DNA of 64,000 bases from an uncultured virus (IMG/VR IMGVR_UViG_3300012009_000259) (IMGVR_UViG_3300012009_000259), one strand, 5' to 3'; shown: positions 17,348 to 40,879, counted from the first letter of the stretch. A program made the numbers and translations. The notes: generated by a model not told the origin, from the letters alone.

Positions 17348-20300
17348 ATGTTATATATTCCCCTGCATGTCCACTCCACGCTTTCTACCCTAGACAGCGC
17401 AATAAAAGTAAGTGACTACGTAAATTGGGCTGTAGAACGCGGGAAGCCTGCCATAGCCCTGACCGATCATGGGAAAGGGCACGCAATTCCAGATTTCGTA
17501 TGGACAGCGCAAAAAGCAGGCGTTAAGCCTATCGTCGGGGTCGAGACTTATATAACCCCTGATTTCCCGATGACCAAAAAGGATGGTGACCACAAGACTA
17601 AGCACCACCTTGTGCTCTTGTGCAGGAATCAGGAAGGATACCGCAATCTCCTGAAAATCCTCTGCGTTTCGCAAACAGAGGGGTTCTACTACACCCCCCG
17701 CATTGATAAGGATTTTCTGAAAAAGCACTCCGCAGGCTTAATCGCTACCTCTGCCTGCATTAGTGGTGAGATCAATAGATTACTTTACGATGGCCTTAAC
17801 GAAGATATGGATGAGATCGCCTCTGAAAGTGTAGAGGCTGCACGAAAAGCAATCCGGTGGTATAAGAACGTCTTTGAAGAGGACTTCTATTTAGAAGTCC
17901 AATCCCACGGGATTGAGGGAATGGACGTGGTTTATGACGTAGTGCGCAGACTCGGAGGAGAAATGGGAGTGAAACGCATTGCTACGACTGACTCTCATTA
18001 TATATACCCTGAGGATGTGACGACACAGAGCGCATTAGCATCTATCCGCACTAAGGACGACTTAGGAGAAAGTCCGCTAGCGGTAGGCCCCACATTCCAC
18101 CTTTGGGAAGATGAGGAAATGCAGGAAGCATTCTTAGAAGATGAGTTGCAAGCGACCATCGAACTTGCCGAATCCGTAGAAGAAATTAGTATCCCCAAAG
18201 CCCCCCCCTATCACATTCCTCTGTATGGAGACAGTGAGGAGGAGGATAGGCTAACGCTTAGGAGGATGTGCGAAGAAGCACTCACCCAAAAGTATCCTGA
18301 TGCTACCCAGGGGGTAGTAGACAGGATGGAGCACGAGTTGGGGATTATTGAGGATATGCACTTTCCTTCCTACTTCTTAATTGTGGCGGACATCTGCAAG
18401 GCGAGCCGTGACATGGACTTGTTGTGGAGTGTGCGCGGCTCAGCAGCGGGGAGTCTGGTAGCATATCTCACAGGGATTACTCTGATTGACCCGCTCAAAT
18501 ACAATTTGAAGTTTGAACGGTTCTTGAACCCTGCGCGGGTAAACATGCCTGACATTGATTTAGACTACCCAGACCACGTTAGAAGTCAGATCATCGAATA
18601 CACCAAAAACAGATATGGGGATGACCACGTAGCTCACATCGGGGCGTGGGGCTACTATCTTGCTAAGAGCGCACTAAAAGACGCTGCGAGGGTTTGGAAG
18701 TTATCATTCTCAGTGGCGAATAAACTCTCCAAACTTATTCCAGACGGTCTCAACCTACGGGGGGCTATCCAGGAAGTACCTCCGTTGCGAAACCAATATA
18801 ATGCGGGAAAGGTTGCCATCGCCGTAATGGAACGAAAAGGGGAAACAGAAGCAGATGTAGCGAAGATGCTCCGCAGAGCTGCTATTGGCAGTAAGGTCGA
18901 TTACGGAGACGCCATTAGGGAAGTGGCGAATGGTAATGTCACAGTTCAGCAAGTGTTTGAGAAGTATCCTAGCCTGGAGAAGGTGGTAGATAAGAGAGCC
19001 AGAATTAACAGGATGCTAGATTTGGGATGCCAATTAGAGGGCGGCGTCAGAAACATTAGTATTCATGCTGCTGGCATACTAGTGTCAGATGTGCCACTTG
19101 ACGAGCAATTCCCGATCTTGAGGGCATCAAGTAGTAGTAGCGCAACCCTTAAGGCAGTTAGTCAGTGGCCGATGGATATTATTGACAAGATGGGTGGATT
19201 GAAGGTTGACTTCCTAGGCCTTCGAACACTCCAACATGTCCAAAGGGTGATGGAGTCCATCAGAAGGGAAACGGGGGAAGAGATGACCTTCTGGACTATC
19301 CCCGTAGAAGACGCAGATGACCCGCGCACACAAAAGGCGTATGATCTCCTGTGTACAGGTGATACGTCTGGCTGCTTCCAGGTCGAGAGCCCTGGTATGC
19401 GTGGAGCACTGCAAGACGTAAGACCCCGAAGCATCTCTGAAGTAGCTGATGTAGTTGCATTATATCGACCTGGGCCAATGGACTCAATCCCCGATTACGT
19501 AGCAGTTAAGAGAGGGGAGAAAGAGTTGGAGTGCGTACACCCCGATTTGAAACAAGTCTTAGACGAGACTCACGGGGTTTGCGTCTTCCAGGAGCAGGTC
19601 ATGCAGATTGCCCAGTTAATTGCGGGGTTCTCTGGGGCAGACGCAGACCTTCTTCGCTATGTAATCTCTAAGAAGAAGATCAAGCAAATCCCTGGGCAAA
19701 AAAGGAAGTTCATTGGTGGGGCTTTGGGGAATGGCTACACCCGTGAAGAGGCGCAAGGAATCTGGGATAGCATTACTACGTTTGCGCGTTACGGATTCAA
19801 CAAAGCACATGCCGTGAGTTATGCCTTTTTAACCGTTATCACGGCTTGGCTGAAGGCCAACTATCCGTGGCACTTTCTTGCTGAACTTATCGCTACGGAA
19901 AGCGGGGATACCGACAAAATGGGTATGCTCATTAGCGAGGCAAAAGAGCAGGGGTATGTGGTTACCCCTCCCGACATTAACAGAAGTTTAATCGAGACAC
20001 GCCTAGTCGTCGAAGGGGATGATAGACGAATTGTGCTTGGATTAAAAGAAGTAAAGCACGTAGGCAAAGCAGCCTACGAAATTGTAGAGACTCGTGGGGA
20101 TACCCCTTTTGAGGGCTTGGGAGACTTCTTGAGACGGTGCGAGTTTGAGAAAACAAATTCTCGCACTTTGAAATCACTTGCTAAAGCTGGTGCATTTGAC
20201 GAAATGGTTCCTACCCGCTCCCAGGCCATTGCTTCGGCTCAAGCGATGTCTAACTATGGGCGCAAGCACAACGGCGAAACAAGACATAGGCAACCTACTC

Positions 20301-20746
20301 TCTTCGAACATGAGGGTGATGATAAGGGCAATGGAGACAATACACCGTACTTGGTAAAAGCATATCAAGAGATGCCTATTCTTGAATTTGAGAAGGAGGT
20401 GTTGGGCACTTATGTCACAGAGCATCCATTAGACGACATCGAGCCTGAAATGGTCGCCAAGAAGGGGGCAACTCGATTATCCGACATCAAGCCCGACCAG
20501 AAAGGTAATGTTACTGTAGTGGGGCTCGTAACAAAGCGCCACGACCACAAAACCAAGAAAGGCACGCGGATGGGGTTCGTTACTCTCACCTCACCTACTG
20601 CCGAAGCCAGTATTACAGTCTGGCCCTCGACCTATAAAAATATAAGAGGGCGATTAAAAGAGGGCAACATCGTTCTTGTCGAGGGGTATTTTAATTACTA
20701 TCAAGGGCGACAGAGCATTGTCGCTGAAAGTGTTGAAGTAGTATGA
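17348..20746 (+). CDS. dnaE: DNA polymerase III alpha subunit
   Basis: PHP motifs HVHS, ALTDHG, TTDSHY; RGSAAGSL; MPDIDLD; HAAG; KVDFLGL; YGFNKAHA; C-terminal OB fold. Confidence 0.97.
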   Translation: MLYIPLHVHSTLSTLDSAIKVSDYVNWAVERGKPAIALTDHGKGHAIPDFVWTAQKAGVKPIVGVETYITPDFPMTKKDGDHKTKHHLVLLCRNQEGYRNLLKILCVSQTEGFYYTPRIDKDFLKKHSAGLIATSACISGEINRLLYDGLNEDMDEIASESVEAARKAIRWYKNVFEEDFYLEVQSHGIEGMDVVYDVVRRLGGEMGVKRIATTDSHYIYPEDVTTQSALASIRTKDDLGESPLAVGPTFHLWEDEEMQEAFLEDELQATIELAESVEEISIPKAPPYHIPLYGDSEEEDRLTLRRMCEEALTQKYPDATQGVVDRMEHELGIIEDMHFPSYFLIVADICKASRDMDLLWSVRGSAAGSLVAYLTGITLIDPLKYNLKFERFLNPARVNMPDIDLDYPDHVRSQIIEYTKNRYGDDHVAHIGAWGYYLAKSALKDAARVWKLSFSVANKLSKLIPDGLNLRGAIQEVPPLRNQYNAGKVAIAVMERKGETEADVAKMLRRAAIGSKVDYGDAIREVANGNVTVQQVFEKYPSLEKVVDKRARINRMLDLGCQLEGGVRNISIHAAGILVSDVPLDEQFPILRASSSSSATLKAVSQWPMDIIDKMGGLKVDFLGLRTLQHVQRVMESIRRETGEEMTFWTIPVEDADDPRTQKAYDLLCTGDTSGCFQVESPGMRGALQDVRPRSISEVADVVALYRPGPMDSIPDYVAVKRGEKELECVHPDLKQVLDETHGVCVFQEQVMQIAQLIAGFSGADADLLRYVISKKKIKQIPGQKRKFIGGALGNGYTREEAQGIWDSITTFARYGFNKAHAVSYAFLTVITAWLKANYPWHFLAELIATESGDTDKMGMLISEAKEQGYVVTPPDINRSLIETRLVVEGDDRRIVLGLKEVKHVGKAAYEIVETRGDTPFEGLGDFLRRCEFEKTNSRTLKSLAKAGAFDEMVPTRSQAIASAQAMSNYGRKHNGETRHRQPTLFEHEGDDKGNGDNTPYLVKAYQEMPILEFEKEVLGTYVTEHPLDDIEPEMVAKKGATRLSDIKPDQKGNVTVVGLVTKRHDHKTKKGTRMGFVTLTSPTAEASITVWPSTYKNIRGRLKEGNIVLVEGYFNYYQGRQSIVAESVEVV

Positions 20747-36418: not shown

Positions 36419-37053
36419 ACAAGCAGACCTCTTTTTTCTCCGTCTACTTCGACAACAGATGTTAGACGGCTTTTGCCCCAGACTCCCGCTTCAGAGAGAG
36501 GCTTGCCTACCTTTACAGGCTCTTTTGTAAGCAGAGCGTCATTCCAATAAACGGGCATATTATTTTTATCAACCATAGATGGTACAAGGTTAATAAATGG
36601 ACGTGAGTTGACTTCTTTCGACAACCAAGAGAGAGCCTCGTTGTTTAGGGGTTTTGGGAGACCAGCAACTTTTACAAATGCCCACCAAGGAACTTCCCAC
36701 CTCACAGGCATCTTGTAAATTTCGTGTGTCGCTGCGTATATCTCTTCTCTGGCCTTTCGGAGTGACTTCTTTAGATATACCAAGCTCTGATTACCTCTGT
36801 AGTGGAGGCATATTAGTCGGTAAAGCTGCATACCCCAATACAGAGGGTGATCCCCCTTGTAGTGTTTTTTCATCAACTGCACAAGAAAGCCACCAGTGTC
36901 CAGTATCTGAACAGTCTGAACGTGCTCTCTATGTAAGGGTTGTTCTTTTACGACCTTGTTAGTCTGGTGGAAAACACCCTCTCTGTACTCGACGCTAATA
37001 GGTTTAGTTGAGGATGTCCTTAAGCTTATCAACATCTGCGTCCTCCATGTCAC
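36397..37053 (-). CDS. hypothetical protein
   Basis: 218-aa ORF in operon. Confidence 0.6.
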   Translation of the reverse strand: MTWRTQMLISLRTSSTKPISVEYREGVFHQTNKVVKEQPLHREHVQTVQILDTGGFLVQLMKKHYKGDHPLYWGMQLYRLICLHYRGNQSLVYLKKSLRKAREEIYAATHEIYKMPVRWEVPWWAFVKVAGLPKPLNNEALSWLSKEVNSRPFINLVPSMVDKNNMPVYWNDALLTKEPVKVGKPLSEAGVWGKSRLTSVVEVDGEKRGLLVWFPYMR

Positions 37054-37627
37054 GCATGATGCGCGTGACGGTGGTCTTCTCCCCTTGGATTATAATTGTC
37101 CAGGCTCTTGCCTGTGAATATGACTCTAACATCCCTTCTTCGATATAGTTTGAAAAAGCTTTATAGTCATACGTCCCTGGACTGGGGGCGTCGATTATTG
37201 CTATTCCAACGGATGATCTTGGTCGCTGAATCACAATGCGACTGCCGTCAATCCACTTGGTGTCGCTACTCTCGTTCGACAGCGTTAAAACGGAGAAATA
37301 AAAAGCGTTCAAATCAGGAACAATCGCTACCTGGAATGTATTTATTCCTGGTATCCTCCAGAAACCCGCCCCTACCTCCTCGATTGCATTTATTATCTGC
37401 TCCCCAGGTGGGGCCACAGCAGTTGGCGTTGGCGTCGGAGAGGGGGTCGGTGTCGGTGTTGGTGTTGCAGGCCCTCCCCCCAAGTCAATACCAAGACTAT
37501 CGAGGTTTAGACTCCCAAGGCTTACTCCTTGGGACTGCACGAGGAGTGCTCCTGCAACCAGCACTACTACTACAACTGGCGCTATAAACCACACCTTCTT
37601 ATTCTTCTCATCTTTCTTCTTGCCCAC
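37004..37627 (-). CDS. membrane-anchored protein with a PT-rich linker
   Basis: TM helix followed by PATPTPTPTPSPTPTPT; RBS ggagg. Confidence 0.75.
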   Translation of the reverse strand: MGKKKDEKNKKVWFIAPVVVVVLVAGALLVQSQGVSLGSLNLDSLGIDLGGGPATPTPTPTPSPTPTPTAVAPPGEQIINAIEEVGAGFWRIPGINTFQVAIVPDLNAFYFSVLTLSNESSDTKWIDGSRIVIQRPRSSVGIAIIDAPSPGTYDYKAFSNYIEEGMLESYSQARAWTIIIQGEKTTVTRIMRDMEDADVDKLKDILN

Positions 37628-37702
37628 AGTTCCTCCCTTTTTATACGTATCTCATTATACATTACCATGATACACTGGGTTTAGAAAAAGCCATCGACCT
37701 AT

Positions 37703-37731
37703 TTGACAGAAATGCACCATTATGGTAGTAT
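37703..37731 (+). promoter_or_regulatory. sigma-70 promoter of the tRNA operon
   Basis: TTGACA (37703-37708), 17-bp spacer, extended -10 TG-n-TAGTAT (37726-37731); predicted +1 near 37738. Confidence 0.8.
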
Positions 37732-37737
37732 ATACAC

Positions 37738-37812
37738 ATGGACAAGATGAAGAAGTTATGCTCGCTACATTTGTATCTCGGAACCCTCAAGGGTGGAAGG
37801 GAGAAGGCGTAG
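37738..37812 (+). CDS. putative leaderless attenuator leader peptide MDKMKKLCSLHLYLGTLKGGREKA
   Basis: ATG at the predicted TSS; codon run TTA TGC TCG CTA CAT TTG TAT CTC, seven of which match downstream tRNA anticodons. Confidence 0.7.
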   Translation: MDKMKKLCSLHLYLGTLKGGREKA

Positions 37813-37845
37813 CACCTTCATTTTATTTCTCCTTCAAGACCGCCC
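37791..37845 (+). promoter_or_regulatory. putative antiterminator helix
   Basis: gggtgg/aagggagaa (37791-37805) can pair with ttctccttc...ccgccc (37827-37845), overlapping the terminator 5' arm. Confidence 0.6.
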
Positions 37846-37871
37846 AGAAAAACAAGGGGTGGTCTTTTTTT
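37836..37871 (+). terminator. intrinsic terminator (attenuator) upstream of the tRNA array
   Basis: aagaccgccc / gggtggtctt stem ending in a T7 run. Confidence 0.8.
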
Positions 37872-37898
37872 GTACCTTAACAATAGAAGTGAAATTAA

Positions 37899-37981
37899 GC
37901 GGATGTGACGGAATGGAAGACGAGGGAGACTTAAAATCTTCTGCTCTTCGGGGCGTGTGGGTTCGACTCCCACCATCCGCA
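37899..37981 (+). tRNA. tRNA-Leu(UAA)
   Basis: gcggatg/catccgc acceptor, anticodon loop cttaaaa, long variable arm, GTTCGA T-loop. Confidence 0.92.
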
Positions 37982-37987
37982 CAATAG

Positions 37988-38071
37988 GCTGATGTGGCGT
38001 AATAGGCAAACGTGCTGCGTTCAGGACGCAGTGGGCTTAGGCTCGTGAGAGTTCGACTCTCTCCATCAGCA
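37988..38071 (+). tRNA. tRNA-Leu(CAG)
   Basis: gctgatg/catcagc acceptor; ctgcg-ttcagga-cgcag. Confidence 0.92.
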
Positions 38072-38110
38072 CTTGGTATTAGGCAGGGCTTGTCCCATCG
38101 CCTAATGCTA

Positions 38111-38252
38111 CCAAGATTAAGGTGGTGAAATGGAAGACACTCTTGGCGCTGTGGCTGTGCCCAAAGACCACAGCCCCCGCCTACAAGAGGCGGGGAAACC
38201 AAGTGTCGAGTAAGGGCAGGCGTGCGGGTTCGAATCCCGCCCTTAGTCTTGG
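38111..38252 (+). ncRNA. tRNA-like RNA with the anticodon loop replaced by two hairpins
   Basis: acceptor attaagg/ccttagt, Leu-like D arm, T arm gcggg-ttcgaat-cccgc, 52-nt structured insert inside the cttgg/ccaag stem. Confidence 0.7.
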
Positions 38253-38259
38253 ATTTAAT

Positions 38260-38340
38260 GGGCAGATACCCAAGCGGACAAAGGGGGCTGGCTGTAAACC
38301 AGTTGTCTCGGCTACGGTGGTTCGAATCCACCTCTGCCCA
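38260..38340 (+). tRNA. tRNA-Tyr(GUA)
   Basis: gggcaga/tctgccc acceptor; loop ctgtaaa. Confidence 0.92.
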
Positions 38341-38345
38341 CCTAT

Positions 38346-38428
38346 GGTGCAGTATCCAAGTGTGACAAAGGAAGCTGACTGTAAATCAGCCGCCTCTGGC
38401 TTCGTAGGTTCAAATCCTACCTGCACCA
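38346..38428 (+). tRNA. tRNA-Tyr(GUA)
   Basis: ggtgcag/ctgcacc acceptor; gctga-ctgtaaa-tcagc. Confidence 0.92.
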
Positions 38429-38446
38429 CTAAACTTTTGCAAATAT

Positions 38447-38519
38447 GGCGAGATGGCCGAGTGGCTAAGGCAACCGTCTGCAAAACGGTTTTACGTGAGT
38501 TCAAATCTCACTCTCGCCT
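38447..38519 (+). tRNA. tRNA-Cys(GCA)
   Basis: ggcgaga/tctcgcc acceptor; accgt-ctgcaaa-acggt; U73. Confidence 0.92.
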
Positions 38520-38524
38520 CTTTA

Positions 38525-38608
38525 GGGGGTGTGGCGTAACTGGCAGCCGCACATGCCTTAGGAGCATGTGGTCTTCGGGCCGTGTGGGTTCGACTCCCAC
38601 CATCCCCA
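38525..38608 (+). tRNA. tRNA-Leu(UAG)
   Basis: catgc-cttagga-gcatg; long variable arm. Confidence 0.92.
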
Positions 38609-38613
38609 CTTTT

Positions 38614-38672
38614 GGCTCTATGACGGAACTTGACAAACGCGGCGTCTTGAAGAAGCGTTGGTCAAAAGGCTA
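38614..38672 (+). pseudogene. truncated tRNA-Leu-like 5' fragment lacking the T arm
   Basis: similar to 39220 (5' end) and 39413 (anticodon and variable arms), with mismatches. Confidence 0.65.
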
Positions 38673-38713
38673 ACCTGCCCTAACATACATACAGCGAAAA
38701 AGGTGGGGCGACT

Positions 38714-39043
38714 ATGACCATCAGCGAGCACTACAACAAAGATGCTTATTACGCACCAAAGAATAAGGTAGGCTTCTTCTTCGAGGCGATGGGCGTTTCT
38801 AGAGAAGACTTCTCTCGGTTCAGGGGATGTACCATAGTAAAAGACAGAAGAAGTGGAGACATTGCCATTCACATAGAAGCACGGAATAGGGATACTGAGC
38901 CCCAAGAGTCTGTAAGGCGAAGAATGTAGCAATGCCCTTACTTCCGATACACACAAAGAGGCTCAGGGGAGACCTACATTAAGTATGTATTCTCTGTTCC
39001 AGATTTGACCATAGACGCGGCAAAGAGAATAATTAGCGGATAG
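38714..39043 (+). pseudogene. small gene inside the tRNA array with an internal in-frame TAG at 38927-38929
   Basis: frame continues QCPYFRYTQRGSGETYIKYVFSVPDLTIDAAKRIISG after the stop; aaggtgggg RBS. Confidence 0.5.
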
Positions 39044-39127
39044 GCGCACGTAAGGTTCGACTCTCACCATCCGCACTGGCAATTACTAGATCGGTAGCGT
39101 TGGGGGGCGGCCAACCCCCTCACTCAA

Positions 39128-39214
39128 GCAGGTGTGGCGAAAACTAGGCAGACGCGCTGGCTTCAGGAGTCAGTGCCCCAAAAAGGCGTGTGGGTTCGAC
39201 TCCCACCACCTGCA
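39128..39214 (+). tRNA. tRNA-Leu(CAG)
   Basis: gcaggtg/cacctgc acceptor; ctggc-ttcagga-gtcag. Confidence 0.9.
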
Positions 39215-39219
39215 TAAAT

Positions 39220-39303
39220 GGCTCTGTGACGGAATAGGCAGACGTAGAGGTTTCAAAAACCTCCGCTCGAAAGGGCGTGTGGGTTCGACTCCCGCCAGGG
39301 CCA
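39220..39303 (+). tRNA. tRNA-Leu(CAA)
   Basis: gaggt-ttcaaaa-acctc; long variable arm. Confidence 0.92.
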
Positions 39304-39325
39304 CCTAGTACAATAAGATATACAT

Positions 39326-39398
39326 GGTGACCGTAGCTCAATGGTAGAGCACCTGTTTGTGGAACAGGCGGTTGTGGGTTCGAACCCCATCGGTCACC
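39326..39398 (+). tRNA. tRNA-His(GUG)
   Basis: cctgt-ttgtgga-acagg; encoded G-1, C73. Confidence 0.92.
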
Positions 39399-39412
39399 CC
39401 TTGTATTACTAA

Positions 39413-39498
39413 GCAGGTGTGGCGTAATCTTGGCAAACGCGGCGTCTTGAGGGGGCGTTGGTCGAAAGGCTATGTGGGTTCGAGTCCCACCACCTGCA
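39413..39498 (+). tRNA. tRNA-Leu(GAG)
   Basis: gcgtc-ttgaggg-ggcgt; gcaggtg/cacctgc acceptor. Confidence 0.88.
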
Positions 39499-39611
39499 CT
39501 ATGCAACATAACAAGAAAGGGGAGTCCCAGATTCAGTCATGGGAGCGGCAGAGAAGATAACTAGCGGAAGCGGATAGGCGCACTTAAGGTTCAAGTCCTT
39601 TATTCCGTACT

Positions 39612-39683
39612 GTGGACGTAGCCTAACGGTTAAGGCATCTGTCTGTGGAACAGAGTATATGGGTTCAACTCCCATCGTCCACC
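39612..39683 (+). tRNA. tRNA-His(GUG)
   Basis: gtggacg/cgtccac acceptor; tctgt-ctgtgga-acaga; no encoded G-1. Confidence 0.88.
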
Positions 39684-39820
39684 TTGTTATGCCAGCACCA
39701 GACAGGGGTTGGTGAAGTGGGTCTATAAACCATTTCCAATCTCTCGTTGGGTATTATTAAATATATTGCTTATCTAAGGAGGCAGAGCTGAACAAGTTTA
39801 GGCTTTTAATTCCTATCTTA

Positions 39821-40177
39821 GTGCTATTGTTAGCGCCAGCATGTGGTGGGAGCGGTGACGCAACCCCGACACCAGTAGAGTCCATCGTTTCGATGGACAA
39901 TTTCAGGCGTACCCAAGCAATTGATAGCTCAGGGTACGACATGGCAATGTACGACTTCTATGTAGATTGTTCCGAGGTTCACCCTGACGGATGCTATAGG
40001 GGTGTATACTTCACCGTCATATACTCGATGGACGGCGAGGAGTATACTGAATACGGAACAACAGGGATGGAGTACTTTTCTGAGAAGAAAGTCTACTCAG
40101 GAGTGGTGAGATTTCTGTTGCCTGAGAGGGCTGTGATACAAAATGCAGTTATAACAGTCAACGAGAAGGAATACTGA
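39821..40177 (+). CDS. putative lipoprotein (true start probably slightly upstream)
   Basis: LLLAPACGG lipobox-like motif; aaggagg RBS near 39776. Confidence 0.6.
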   Translation: MLLLAPACGGSGDATPTPVESIVSMDNFRRTQAIDSSGYDMAMYDFYVDCSEVHPDGCYRGVYFTVIYSMDGEEYTEYGTTGMEYFSEKKVYSGVVRFLLPERAVIQNAVITVNEKEY

Positions 40178-40345
40178 AACAAGGCCGGTTAAGGCTCCTG
40201 TCTTTGGAGCAGAAACATAGAGGGGTGCTGCGTTATGCGCAACACCTCTTTTGTATAATATAGAAGAATATATTTGTCAGAGCGCGCACAAGAACAGAGA
40301 GGTAGAGTTAGGAAAGATAACATAATAGGCCATAAGGAATAAATT

Positions 40346-40879
40346 ATGAATATAGATGATGTTATTTTGGAGAAATCAAGAATGGCAGCATACGCTGCCA
40401 GAAATCAACTAGGGGTGTCTCTTTCACCCCAAGATATAGAAGATGCGACCCAAGCTGCCTCTTTGGGCTTTATAAGAGCATGGAGGCGAAAGAATGGTAA
40501 CGTAGGGTATTGTTACGTTGCCGCGAAAAACGAAGCAATAAAGTTTATAGTGCGGGTTTTATTTGGTAACAACCCCGTAGACCCCGTTGAGTACGAGAAA
40601 ATTAGACATTATCTTTCTGCTCGTGACGCTGGTAGGCGAAATGGGCTATCGGATGAGGTGGCAGACCGCCTCTTCCAGATGTTGCTAGGGTCTCGCCTTA
40701 AGAAGGGGGAACGGGGGCGCAAGGCGGCTTTGCGGGAAGTCCTGATAGCAGATGCCTTATGTCAGGAGAAGAATGATGCAGCGATAGCTATGGATCTAGA
40801 TATACCGGAAAGGGATGTCAAGACCTATCGCCTTAGACTGAGAGCACGGCTTGATGATATATATAAAGCGATGCAATAG
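40346..40879 (+). CDS. ECF-like sigma-70-family factor
   Basis: DIEDATQAASLGFIRAW...AAKNEAIKF (region 2); DAAIAMDLDIPERDVKTYRLRLRARL (region 4 HTH). Confidence 0.75.
   Translation: MNIDDVILEKSRMAAYAARNQLGVSLSPQDIEDATQAASLGFIRAWRRKNGNVGYCYVAAKNEAIKFIVRVLFGNNPVDPVEYEKIRHYLSARDAGRRNGLSDEVADRLFQMLLGSRLKKGERGRKAALREVLIADALCQEKNDAAIAMDLDIPERDVKTYRLRLRARLDDIYKAMQ

Follow-up and report, generated by a model that had tools for sequence, protein, structure and literature searches.

This study revealed a candidate regulatory locus at the head of a tRNA gene array in an uncultured virus (IMG/VR IMGVR_UViG_3300012009_000259). The locus lies at positions 37703-39683 of a DNA stretch of 64,000 nucleotides (nt), which was analysed as a whole and is referred to here as the window. 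On the basis of codon content and RNA folding models, the locus probably acts as a ribosome-mediated, tRNA-specific transcription attenuator, which would respond to several tRNAs at once and gate the tRNA operon. Within a leader open reading frame (ORF) of only 24 codons, seven codons out of a run of eight are read by seven distinct tRNA species of the array downstream, and this codon match is not due to chance.

According to the proposed mechanism, transcription would begin at about position 37738, on the AUG of the leader ORF. When the sensed tRNAs are plentiful, the ribosome would reach codon 15 or beyond and cover strand 2 (37791-37806); the terminator would then form and the polymerase would halt before the first tRNA gene. 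A ribosome stalled at codons 7-14 would instead melt hairpin 1:2 and leave strand 2 free to pair with 37826-37845, which would sequester the 5' arm of the terminator and permit readthrough into the array. In the absence of translation, hairpin 1:2 would hold strand 2 and transcription would terminate. The net effect would be a supply on demand of the tRNAs encoded by the element itself.

We give about even chances to a broader proposal, namely that the leader is a multiplexed sensor with one codon per species, in which a shortage of any of the seven tRNAs derepresses the array. It would represent a widespread, unpublished class of leaders in phages and mobile elements, providing a demand-driven supply and possibly an alarm against host tRNA-cleaving defences or tRNA decay. 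That an anticodon nuclease or starvation is the trigger is speculation; the shortage may arise from a mismatch in codon usage, from decay of host tRNAs, from defences that cleave tRNAs or from starvation.

Leader ORF and its match to the tRNA array

The sigma-70-type promoter is located on the + strand at 37703-37731. It comprises a -35 box TTGACA (37703-37708), a 17-nt spacer and a -10 box TAGTAT (37726-37731), with an extended -10 TG at 37723-37724, all of which can be read directly in the DNA as described in the original prediction. Its score in the consensus scan, with the TG, was 10/12. Nine promoter-like sites were found in the region 36500-40500, against 4.6 +/- 2.2 in shuffled sequences. 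The A of the ATG at 37738 sits 7 nt past the -10 box, and the arrangement suggests that transcription starts at or near A37738 and yields a leaderless transcript. The leader ORF itself (37738-37812, + strand) was also present as proposed; it consists of the 24 codons MDKMKKLCSLHLYLGTLKGGREKA and ends with a TAG stop codon at 37810-37812. It carries no Shine-Dalgarno (SD) sequence and is predicted to be translated. A 52-codon ORF at 37722-37880 was rejected as a gene, as it begins within the -10 box, is in another frame and crosses the terminator.

With regard to the array, ARAGORN identified 11 tRNA genes on the + strand at 37899-39683, and Rfam matched all 11 with 48-70 bits. The content claimed earlier (six Leu, two Tyr, two His and one Cys) was thereby confirmed. 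The first block (37899-38609) comprises Leu-TAA (37899-37982), Leu-CAG (37988-38072), Tyr-GTA (38260-38342), a further Tyr-GTA (38346-38429), Cys-GCA (38447-38520) and Leu-TAG (38525-38609). The second block (39128-39683) comprises Leu-CAG (39128-39214), Leu-CAA (39220-39305), His-GTG (39327-39400), Leu-GAG (39413-39499) and a further His-GTG (39612-39683), all on the + strand. The consensus scan found no + strand promoter-like site between the leader promoter (37703) and 38868. The stretch covered includes 37872-37898, just past the terminator, downstream of which the original prediction had considered a separate promoter. As there is no such site, the first six tRNA genes would depend on readthrough.

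The sensor core occupies 37756-37779 (+ strand) and corresponds to codons 7-14 of the leader, TTA, TGC, TCG, CTA, CAT, TTG, TAT and CTC, which encode LCSLHLYL. It contains a single codon each for Leu-UAA, Cys, Leu-UAG, His, Leu-CAA, Tyr and Leu-GAG, so that seven of its eight codons are read by seven distinct tRNA species of the array, exactly as had been noted. The rarity of this match was assessed with 8-codon windows over the 64 kb, on both strands and in all frames (127,954 positions). At least seven of eight codons cognate to Leu, Tyr, His or Cys were found at 52 positions, 15 of which included all four amino acids. A match to at least seven distinct tRNA species of the array was found at one position only, the leader window at 37756. 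Similarly, among 400,000 simulated 24-codon ORFs with the codon usage of the element, 83 had at least seven cognate codons and one had seven distinct species. The distinct-species statistic was picked post hoc; it is nevertheless the natural choice for a sensor of several tRNAs, and the promoter and the terminator fix the position at which it was applied.

Leu, Tyr, His and Cys together account for 15.9% of the codons of the element. All six Leu codons are used near-evenly (13-21% each), and five Leu anticodons are carried.

RNA folding and the proposed switch

In both the minimum free energy (MFE) structure and the centroid structure, the sensor half of the ORF is base-paired with a segment that comprises the ORF's 3' part, its stop codon and the bases directly downstream. 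The resulting hairpin 1:2 (37744-37824, + strand), an anti-antiterminator, is a feature beyond the original prediction and is equal to the 1:2 element of a classical attenuator. A U-rich stretch after this hairpin covers 37820-37829, and the consensus scan reports 37803-37819 as a hairpin with a T-rich tail. Together, the hairpin and the U-rich stretch (37803-37829) may pause the polymerase until a ribosome is loaded.

The antiterminator 2:3 (37791-37845, + strand) combines the pairing of GGGTGG (37791-37796) with CCGCCC (37840-37845) and that of 37798-37806 with 37826-37834. The pairing of 37791-37806 with 37826-37845, which had been put forward as the means of sequestering the 5' arm of the terminator, becomes the MFE structure when masking is applied to the ORF's 5' part. 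The intrinsic terminator (37836-37871, + strand), found in the MFE structure between the ORF and the first tRNA gene as had been stated, is formed by AAGACCGCCC, an 11-nt loop and GGGTGGTCTT, with a T7 run. Its stem has 10 bp, its 3' side GGGUGGUCUU lies within the U7 run, and the hairpin has a free energy of -15.7 kcal/mol. It ends at 37871, which is 28 nt upstream of the first tRNA gene and leaves a spacer of 27 nt (37872-37898). The consensus terminator scan has a loop limit of 8, which is the sole reason why it overlooks this terminator. The fold of 37738-37880 has a free energy of -44 kcal/mol (z -2.34), and 3 of 200 shuffled sequences were as stable.

The switch was examined by ribosome-masked folding of transcripts ending at 37846-37856, which still lack the terminator's 3' arm. 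When no ribosome is present, these transcripts adopt hairpin 1:2 (-27.7 kcal/mol), and the probability that CCGCCC pairs with upstream sequence is 0.10. When the A site of the ribosome is placed at codons 10-14, the antiterminator is the MFE structure (-18.4 kcal/mol), and CCGCCC is sequestered with a probability of 0.95-0.99. The antiterminator is favoured by stalls at codons 2-14, most strongly at codons 9-14, and its probability is at least 0.9 from codon 9 or 10 to codon 14. With the ribosome at codons 15-22, this probability is 0.06-0.10. The highest values were therefore obtained for stalls within the sensor core, and the responsive window closes at codon 14, which is the last sensor codon; under two other footprint models it closes at codon 13 or 15. 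Among dinucleotide shuffles of 37738-37835, 7 of 300 equalled the observed difference between the stalled and unstalled scores, and 1 of 300 equalled both the stalled and the free values. The masked folding, which had been suggested as a check in the original prediction, reproduces in silico the geometry of the trp, his and leu attenuators that it had claimed. These models are consistent with an RNA that acts in silico as a kinetic three-state attenuator.

Codon-matched leaders in other viral contigs and alternative explanations

Two samples of 120 viral loci each were drawn by T-arm motifs, their tRNAs were called, and the 300 nt upstream of each tRNA block were examined. Several of these loci, on unrelated IMG/VR contigs, display the complete architecture. 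L004:1722-1867 contains the leader MKTLFSSYLLSLSLLSQGT, a 1:2 hairpin and a 23-bp terminator, followed by an array of Ser-TGA, Ser-GGA, Ser-GCT, Leu-TAG, Leu-GAG, Leu-TAA, Phe-GAA, Phe-AAA, Tyr-GTA and Leu-CAA. Its predicted switch has three states like that of the window, with values of 0.36 when free, 0.70 when stalled and 0.37 with the ribosome at the stop codon. On the - strand of L015, a TTGACA promoter and the leader MKETTMLHHFYLNLTERAAV, located 144-81 nt before a Phe tRNA gene, are accompanied by a weak terminator; the leader contains Leu, His, Phe, Tyr and Asn, and the array comprises Phe, two Tyr, two Asn, two His and Leu. L018 (identical to L025 and L059) and L071:1649-1826 exhibit leaders rich in Leu, Val and Cys and terminators, then arrays of Cys, Val and Leu tRNAs. 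In these two cases, the antiterminator lies within the 3' part of the ORF and would be melted by a late ribosome. Finally, L168:3531-3671 carries the Ser/Tyr/Asn/Phe leader MKTLSCSYNSFNSWFFGPSKTIV and a terminator ahead of Tyr, Ser, Ser, Asn and Phe genes. The locus-wide maximum of distinct species is confined to the leader in L004, L015 and L018. Only weak candidates were obtained in L173 and in the leader of L060 (block start 2942).

When blocks were divided according to the presence of a terminator, a sensor with p<=0.05 was found in 5 of 15 terminator-preceded tRNA blocks (a sixth had 0.063) and in 2 of the 123 others (Fisher 1.4e-4). Without the rows of the window itself, the figures were 4/14 and 2/121 (Fisher 0.001). 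In all six cases, the sensor window begins 127-155 nt upstream of the first tRNA. Codon-matched leaders are found in a minority of tRNA blocks, those with a terminator at their head, and the amino acids encoded in the leader vary with those of the array. The existence of independent analogues with different amino-acid sets suggests that the design is a general principle and not an isolated case. The original prediction had proposed to examine whether leader codons co-vary with array anticodons elsewhere; such co-variation was seen in the unrelated contigs L004, L015, L018, L071 and L168, and bulk tests ignoring terminators were weak or null.

Three loci require separate mention. L060 exhibits TTGACA, 17 nt, TACATC, 6 nt and an ATG, a leaderless layout like that of the window. 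L060-5132 came first in the cross-match of sample 1 and was not counted as an analogue, as it lies among tRNA-like sequence and has no leader ORF. The top score of L014 in the shuffle test is an artefact, in which ATG was counted as read by Ile-TAT.

Several observations weigh against a tRNA-specific attenuator and bear on the explanations that compete with it. No homologue of the locus was found across the contigs and records searched. An SD-like 4-mer is found at 41 of the 66 guessed gene starts in the window and not at the leader ORF, so leaderless initiation would be an exception in this element. In the full leader at equilibrium, the terminator has a probability of 0.93-0.97 at any ribosome placement. 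As the terminator dominates at equilibrium, the regulation must be kinetic, and folding cannot prove a kinetic competition. The bulk surveys were weak. In the shuffle test, 6 of 89 regions, including the artefact L014, reached the floor (p<=0.005), and the leader of the window had p=0.045. In the cross-match against the codon sets of other arrays, the own set came first in 5 of 89 regions of sample 1, with 7 at <=0.05 against 4.45 expected (Kolmogorov-Smirnov test, KS, 0.0006), the window ranking at 0.11; in sample 2 it came first in 1 of 96, with 4 at <=0.05 against 4.8 expected (KS 0.20). A local-background test gave 7 of 138 blocks with p<=0.05, against 6.9 expected. The association with terminators is strong and not blind, because the terminator rule was set after the first examples had been seen. 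The missing SD sequence and conserved relatives, the dominance of the terminator and the lack of enrichment in surveys ignoring terminators would all fit a leader that is untranslated. In that case, the terminator would be a constitutive leaky brake or would open through the action of a protein or RNA factor, and the ORF with its codon match would be coincidental. We consider this unlikely. Such a coincidence would have to account for a match seen at one of 127,954 positions and in one of 400,000 simulated ORFs, for a responsive window that ends at the last sensor codon, for a switch score reached by only 7 of 300 shuffles and for the association of sensors with terminators elsewhere; moreover, no T-box, riboswitch or known leader family was detected at E<=1.

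Other points concern the specificity of the sensor. No tRNA of the array reads the core codon TCG (Ser), and CTG is absent from the leader; both were conceded in the original prediction and both hold. The leader does not sense the duplicated Leu-CAG. The His, Leu-CAA and Leu-GAG genes lie in the second block, behind a gap of 518 nt (38610-39127) with promoter-like sites of its own at 38868 and 39005, from which this block could be supplied as well. The consensus scan found no + strand terminator-like site in this gap, and co-transcription of the second block with the first is plausible. It matters, because three of the sensed species (His, Leu-CAA and Leu-GAG) are encoded there. Under the -12..+15 footprint model, the 6-bp helix keeps a probability of 0.84 when the ribosome has reached the stop codon. 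Stalls at the non-cognate codons 2-6 (Asp, Lys, Met) also favour the antiterminator, with values of 0.64-0.77, as would be expected if the same switch served as a general sensor of translation rate, one that responds whenever elongation slows, be it through antibiotics, ribosome damage or global starvation, with the codon match being secondary. The tRNA array (trn) of Anabaena is induced by general translational stress (PMC8421152, PMC10272220). A generic sensor would, however, need no core matching seven species, which is unique among the positions scanned, nor a leader composition that tracks the array content in L004, L015, L018, L071 and L168, and we regard it as quite unlikely. It is very improbable that 37738-37871 is an independent small gene whose product, a small RNA or a peptide of 24 residues, has a function of its own, the terminator lying ahead of the array by chance and the tRNAs arising from incidental readthrough. 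Its promoter-to-terminator unit of about 135 nt and its stable fold (see above) would suit such a gene, but the first six tRNA genes would be left without a promoter of their own, no more than about 10 residues of the peptide are hydrophobic, and the array match and the alternative pairing would be unexplained.

Known attenuators, the source element and additional features

A tRNA-specific attenuator would be of a known type with regard to its mechanism; what is new is probably the targeting of tRNA genes and the design of a sensor for several isoacceptors. In the trp, his, leu, thr, ilv and pheA leaders, a ribosome stalled on regulatory codons selects the antiterminator, and attenuators of the ilv and thr types are multivalent and sense several amino acids. 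The trp, his, leu, thr and ilv attenuators share with the present locus a short leader ORF, regulatory codons, 1:2, 2:3 and 3:4 hairpins and an intrinsic terminator, which are deduced here from sequence and folding; every defining feature that could be assessed at the sequence level is present. Attenuators of this kind control biosynthetic enzymes and contain runs of one codon, whereas the present leader precedes tRNA genes and contains single codons for seven species, including four Leu isoacceptors. Unlike the attenuators of amino-acid operons, it is also predicted to be part of a leaderless mRNA and belongs to an uncultured mobile element. The pheST operon, encoding phenylalanyl-tRNA synthetase, is attenuated through the pheM leader peptide and reads the charging of its own tRNA. 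It resembles the present case in that a component of the translation apparatus is placed under leader-peptide attenuation, but it encodes an enzyme and senses one amino acid, whereas here tRNAs would be controlled by several species. T-boxes bind uncharged tRNA directly, without a ribosome; they are 200-300 nt long, contain a conserved T-box sequence and control synthetase and amino-acid genes. They similarly sense tRNA status and choose between antiterminator and terminator in a 5' leader, in contrast to which the present leader is about 135 nt long and has no T-box match. In the leaders of erm, mef/mel and bmrCD, a stall on a short ORF likewise remodels the downstream RNA. There, an antibiotic together with a nascent-peptide motif brings about the stall and the output is a resistance protein, whereas a shortage of cognate tRNA is proposed here.

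To our knowledge, leader-peptide attenuation is known for amino-acid-making genes or, rarely, for synthetases. In agreement with the novelty claimed in the original prediction, which knew of no attenuator controlling tRNA genes through their own codons, no published description of leader-peptide attenuation of tRNA genes was found in the full-text literature, subscription-only papers being outside the scope of the search. The principle of leader-peptide attenuation in amino-acid biosynthesis operons is summarised in PMC1183508. An Rfam cmscan of 36500-40500 at E<=1 returned the tRNAs and four weak unrelated families only, with no T-box, riboswitch or His, Leu, Thr or Trp leader. The likeness to the leaders of amino-acid operons is one of mechanism and not of sequence family.

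The nearest biological parallel is the trn operon of Anabaena sp. PCC 7120, a long tRNA array on a megaplasmid which is silent and induced when translation is impaired (PMC8421152). Both are supernumerary tRNA arrays of a horizontally spread kind; control in Anabaena is exerted at the promoter, where the repressor TrcR binds direct repeats (PMC10272220). In PMC8421152, "attenuat-", "leader" and "terminator" occur 0 times. A repeat search of 37600-39800 returned tRNA-derived families only; no search was aimed at the 9-nt direct repeats of the TrcR type.

If the proposed attenuator is real, the tRNA pool would itself be placed under feedback control, in a multiplexed manner in which each isoacceptor has one sensor codon. 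This would explain how large tRNA arrays in phages and plasmids can be cheap and yet available, and the leader would be a natural reporter of isoacceptor-specific decoding capacity. The role of viral tRNAs (compensation of codon usage, replacement of degraded host tRNAs or escape from anticodon nucleases) would also be open to direct tests, as the shortages that the element evolved to detect can be read from its sensor codons.

The element, an uncultured virus that corresponds to an unclassified large phage or plasmid, is represented by a contig of 161,153 bp from a microbial-mat metagenome, which contains the window. Three sequencing runs, none of them of RNA, were found to contain its sequence, and all three stem from one microbial-mat sample that may be the source. 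Most of the 57 window proteins tested have no Pfam or PHROG family, and the nearest phage or plasmid homologues of its DnaE (17348-20746) have just 32-34% identity. The element is deep-branching. The upstream flanking gene (37004-37627, - strand) has one relative only among 5.8 billion proteins, P0004, which shares 79% identity and is located on a contig of 1148 bp.

The search for relatives of the locus covered several collections. Blastn against phage and plasmid records gave matches to single tRNAs only. Exact leader, terminator and tRNA patterns were found in none of the viral, metagenome or genome contigs, and a further pattern search of viral contigs gave 3 random matches with 0 tRNAs. 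The flanking proteins and DnaE gave nothing in viral contigs, the alignment of P0002 and P0004 nothing in metagenome contigs and P0004 nothing in genome contigs. Among contigs from four sequencing runs searched at 80% likeness, the leader was covered by the probable source run only, without variants, and the others contributed foreign tRNAs.

Both flanking genes, at 37004-37627 (- strand) and 39821-40177 (+ strand), encode proteins in which a hydrophobic anchor or lipobox-like motif at the N terminus precedes Pro/Thr-rich linkers. In two of the other viral contigs, ARAGORN identified a tRNA of the suppressor type (anticodon TTA) in a Leu tRNA block (L037:3112-3188) and a tRNA with a CTA anticodon (L138), which hint at stop-codon reassignment in these phages.

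The array of the window contains additional features, all on the + strand. A 71-codon ORF with a good SD sequence, AAGGTGGGG, is located within it at 38714-38929 and has no Pfam or PHROG family. At 38115-38249, a tRNA-like element comprises an acceptor stem, a D arm and a T arm (GCGGGTTCGAATCCCGC), with about 56 extra bases in the place of the anticodon arm. A CTTGG/CCAAG stem surrounds two hairpins in this element, and no Rfam tRNA match was obtained for it at E<=1. It was considered as a Ser(CGA) tRNA for TCG and rejected, since ARAGORN with introns allowed gives Asp(GTC) with a 56-nt insert and no CGA anticodon stem was seen by eye. The stretch 38613-38672 corresponds to the 5' two-thirds of a Leu-type tRNA and has 89% identity over 44 nt to the Leu-GAG gene (39429-39472; repeat family D7). 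It has a changed anticodon loop and is without a T arm or 3' acceptor strand, and it looks like a truncated gene copy. Finally, a unit of about 42 nt occurs in two copies that are 77% identical, at 39036-39077 and 39569-39612 (repeat family D4). It consists of an acceptor-like stem fused to a T arm, resembling a minihelix-like tRNA remnant, and each copy is located directly before a tRNA gene of the second block; the copy at 39036-39077 retains the acceptor sequence of the Leu-TAA gene.

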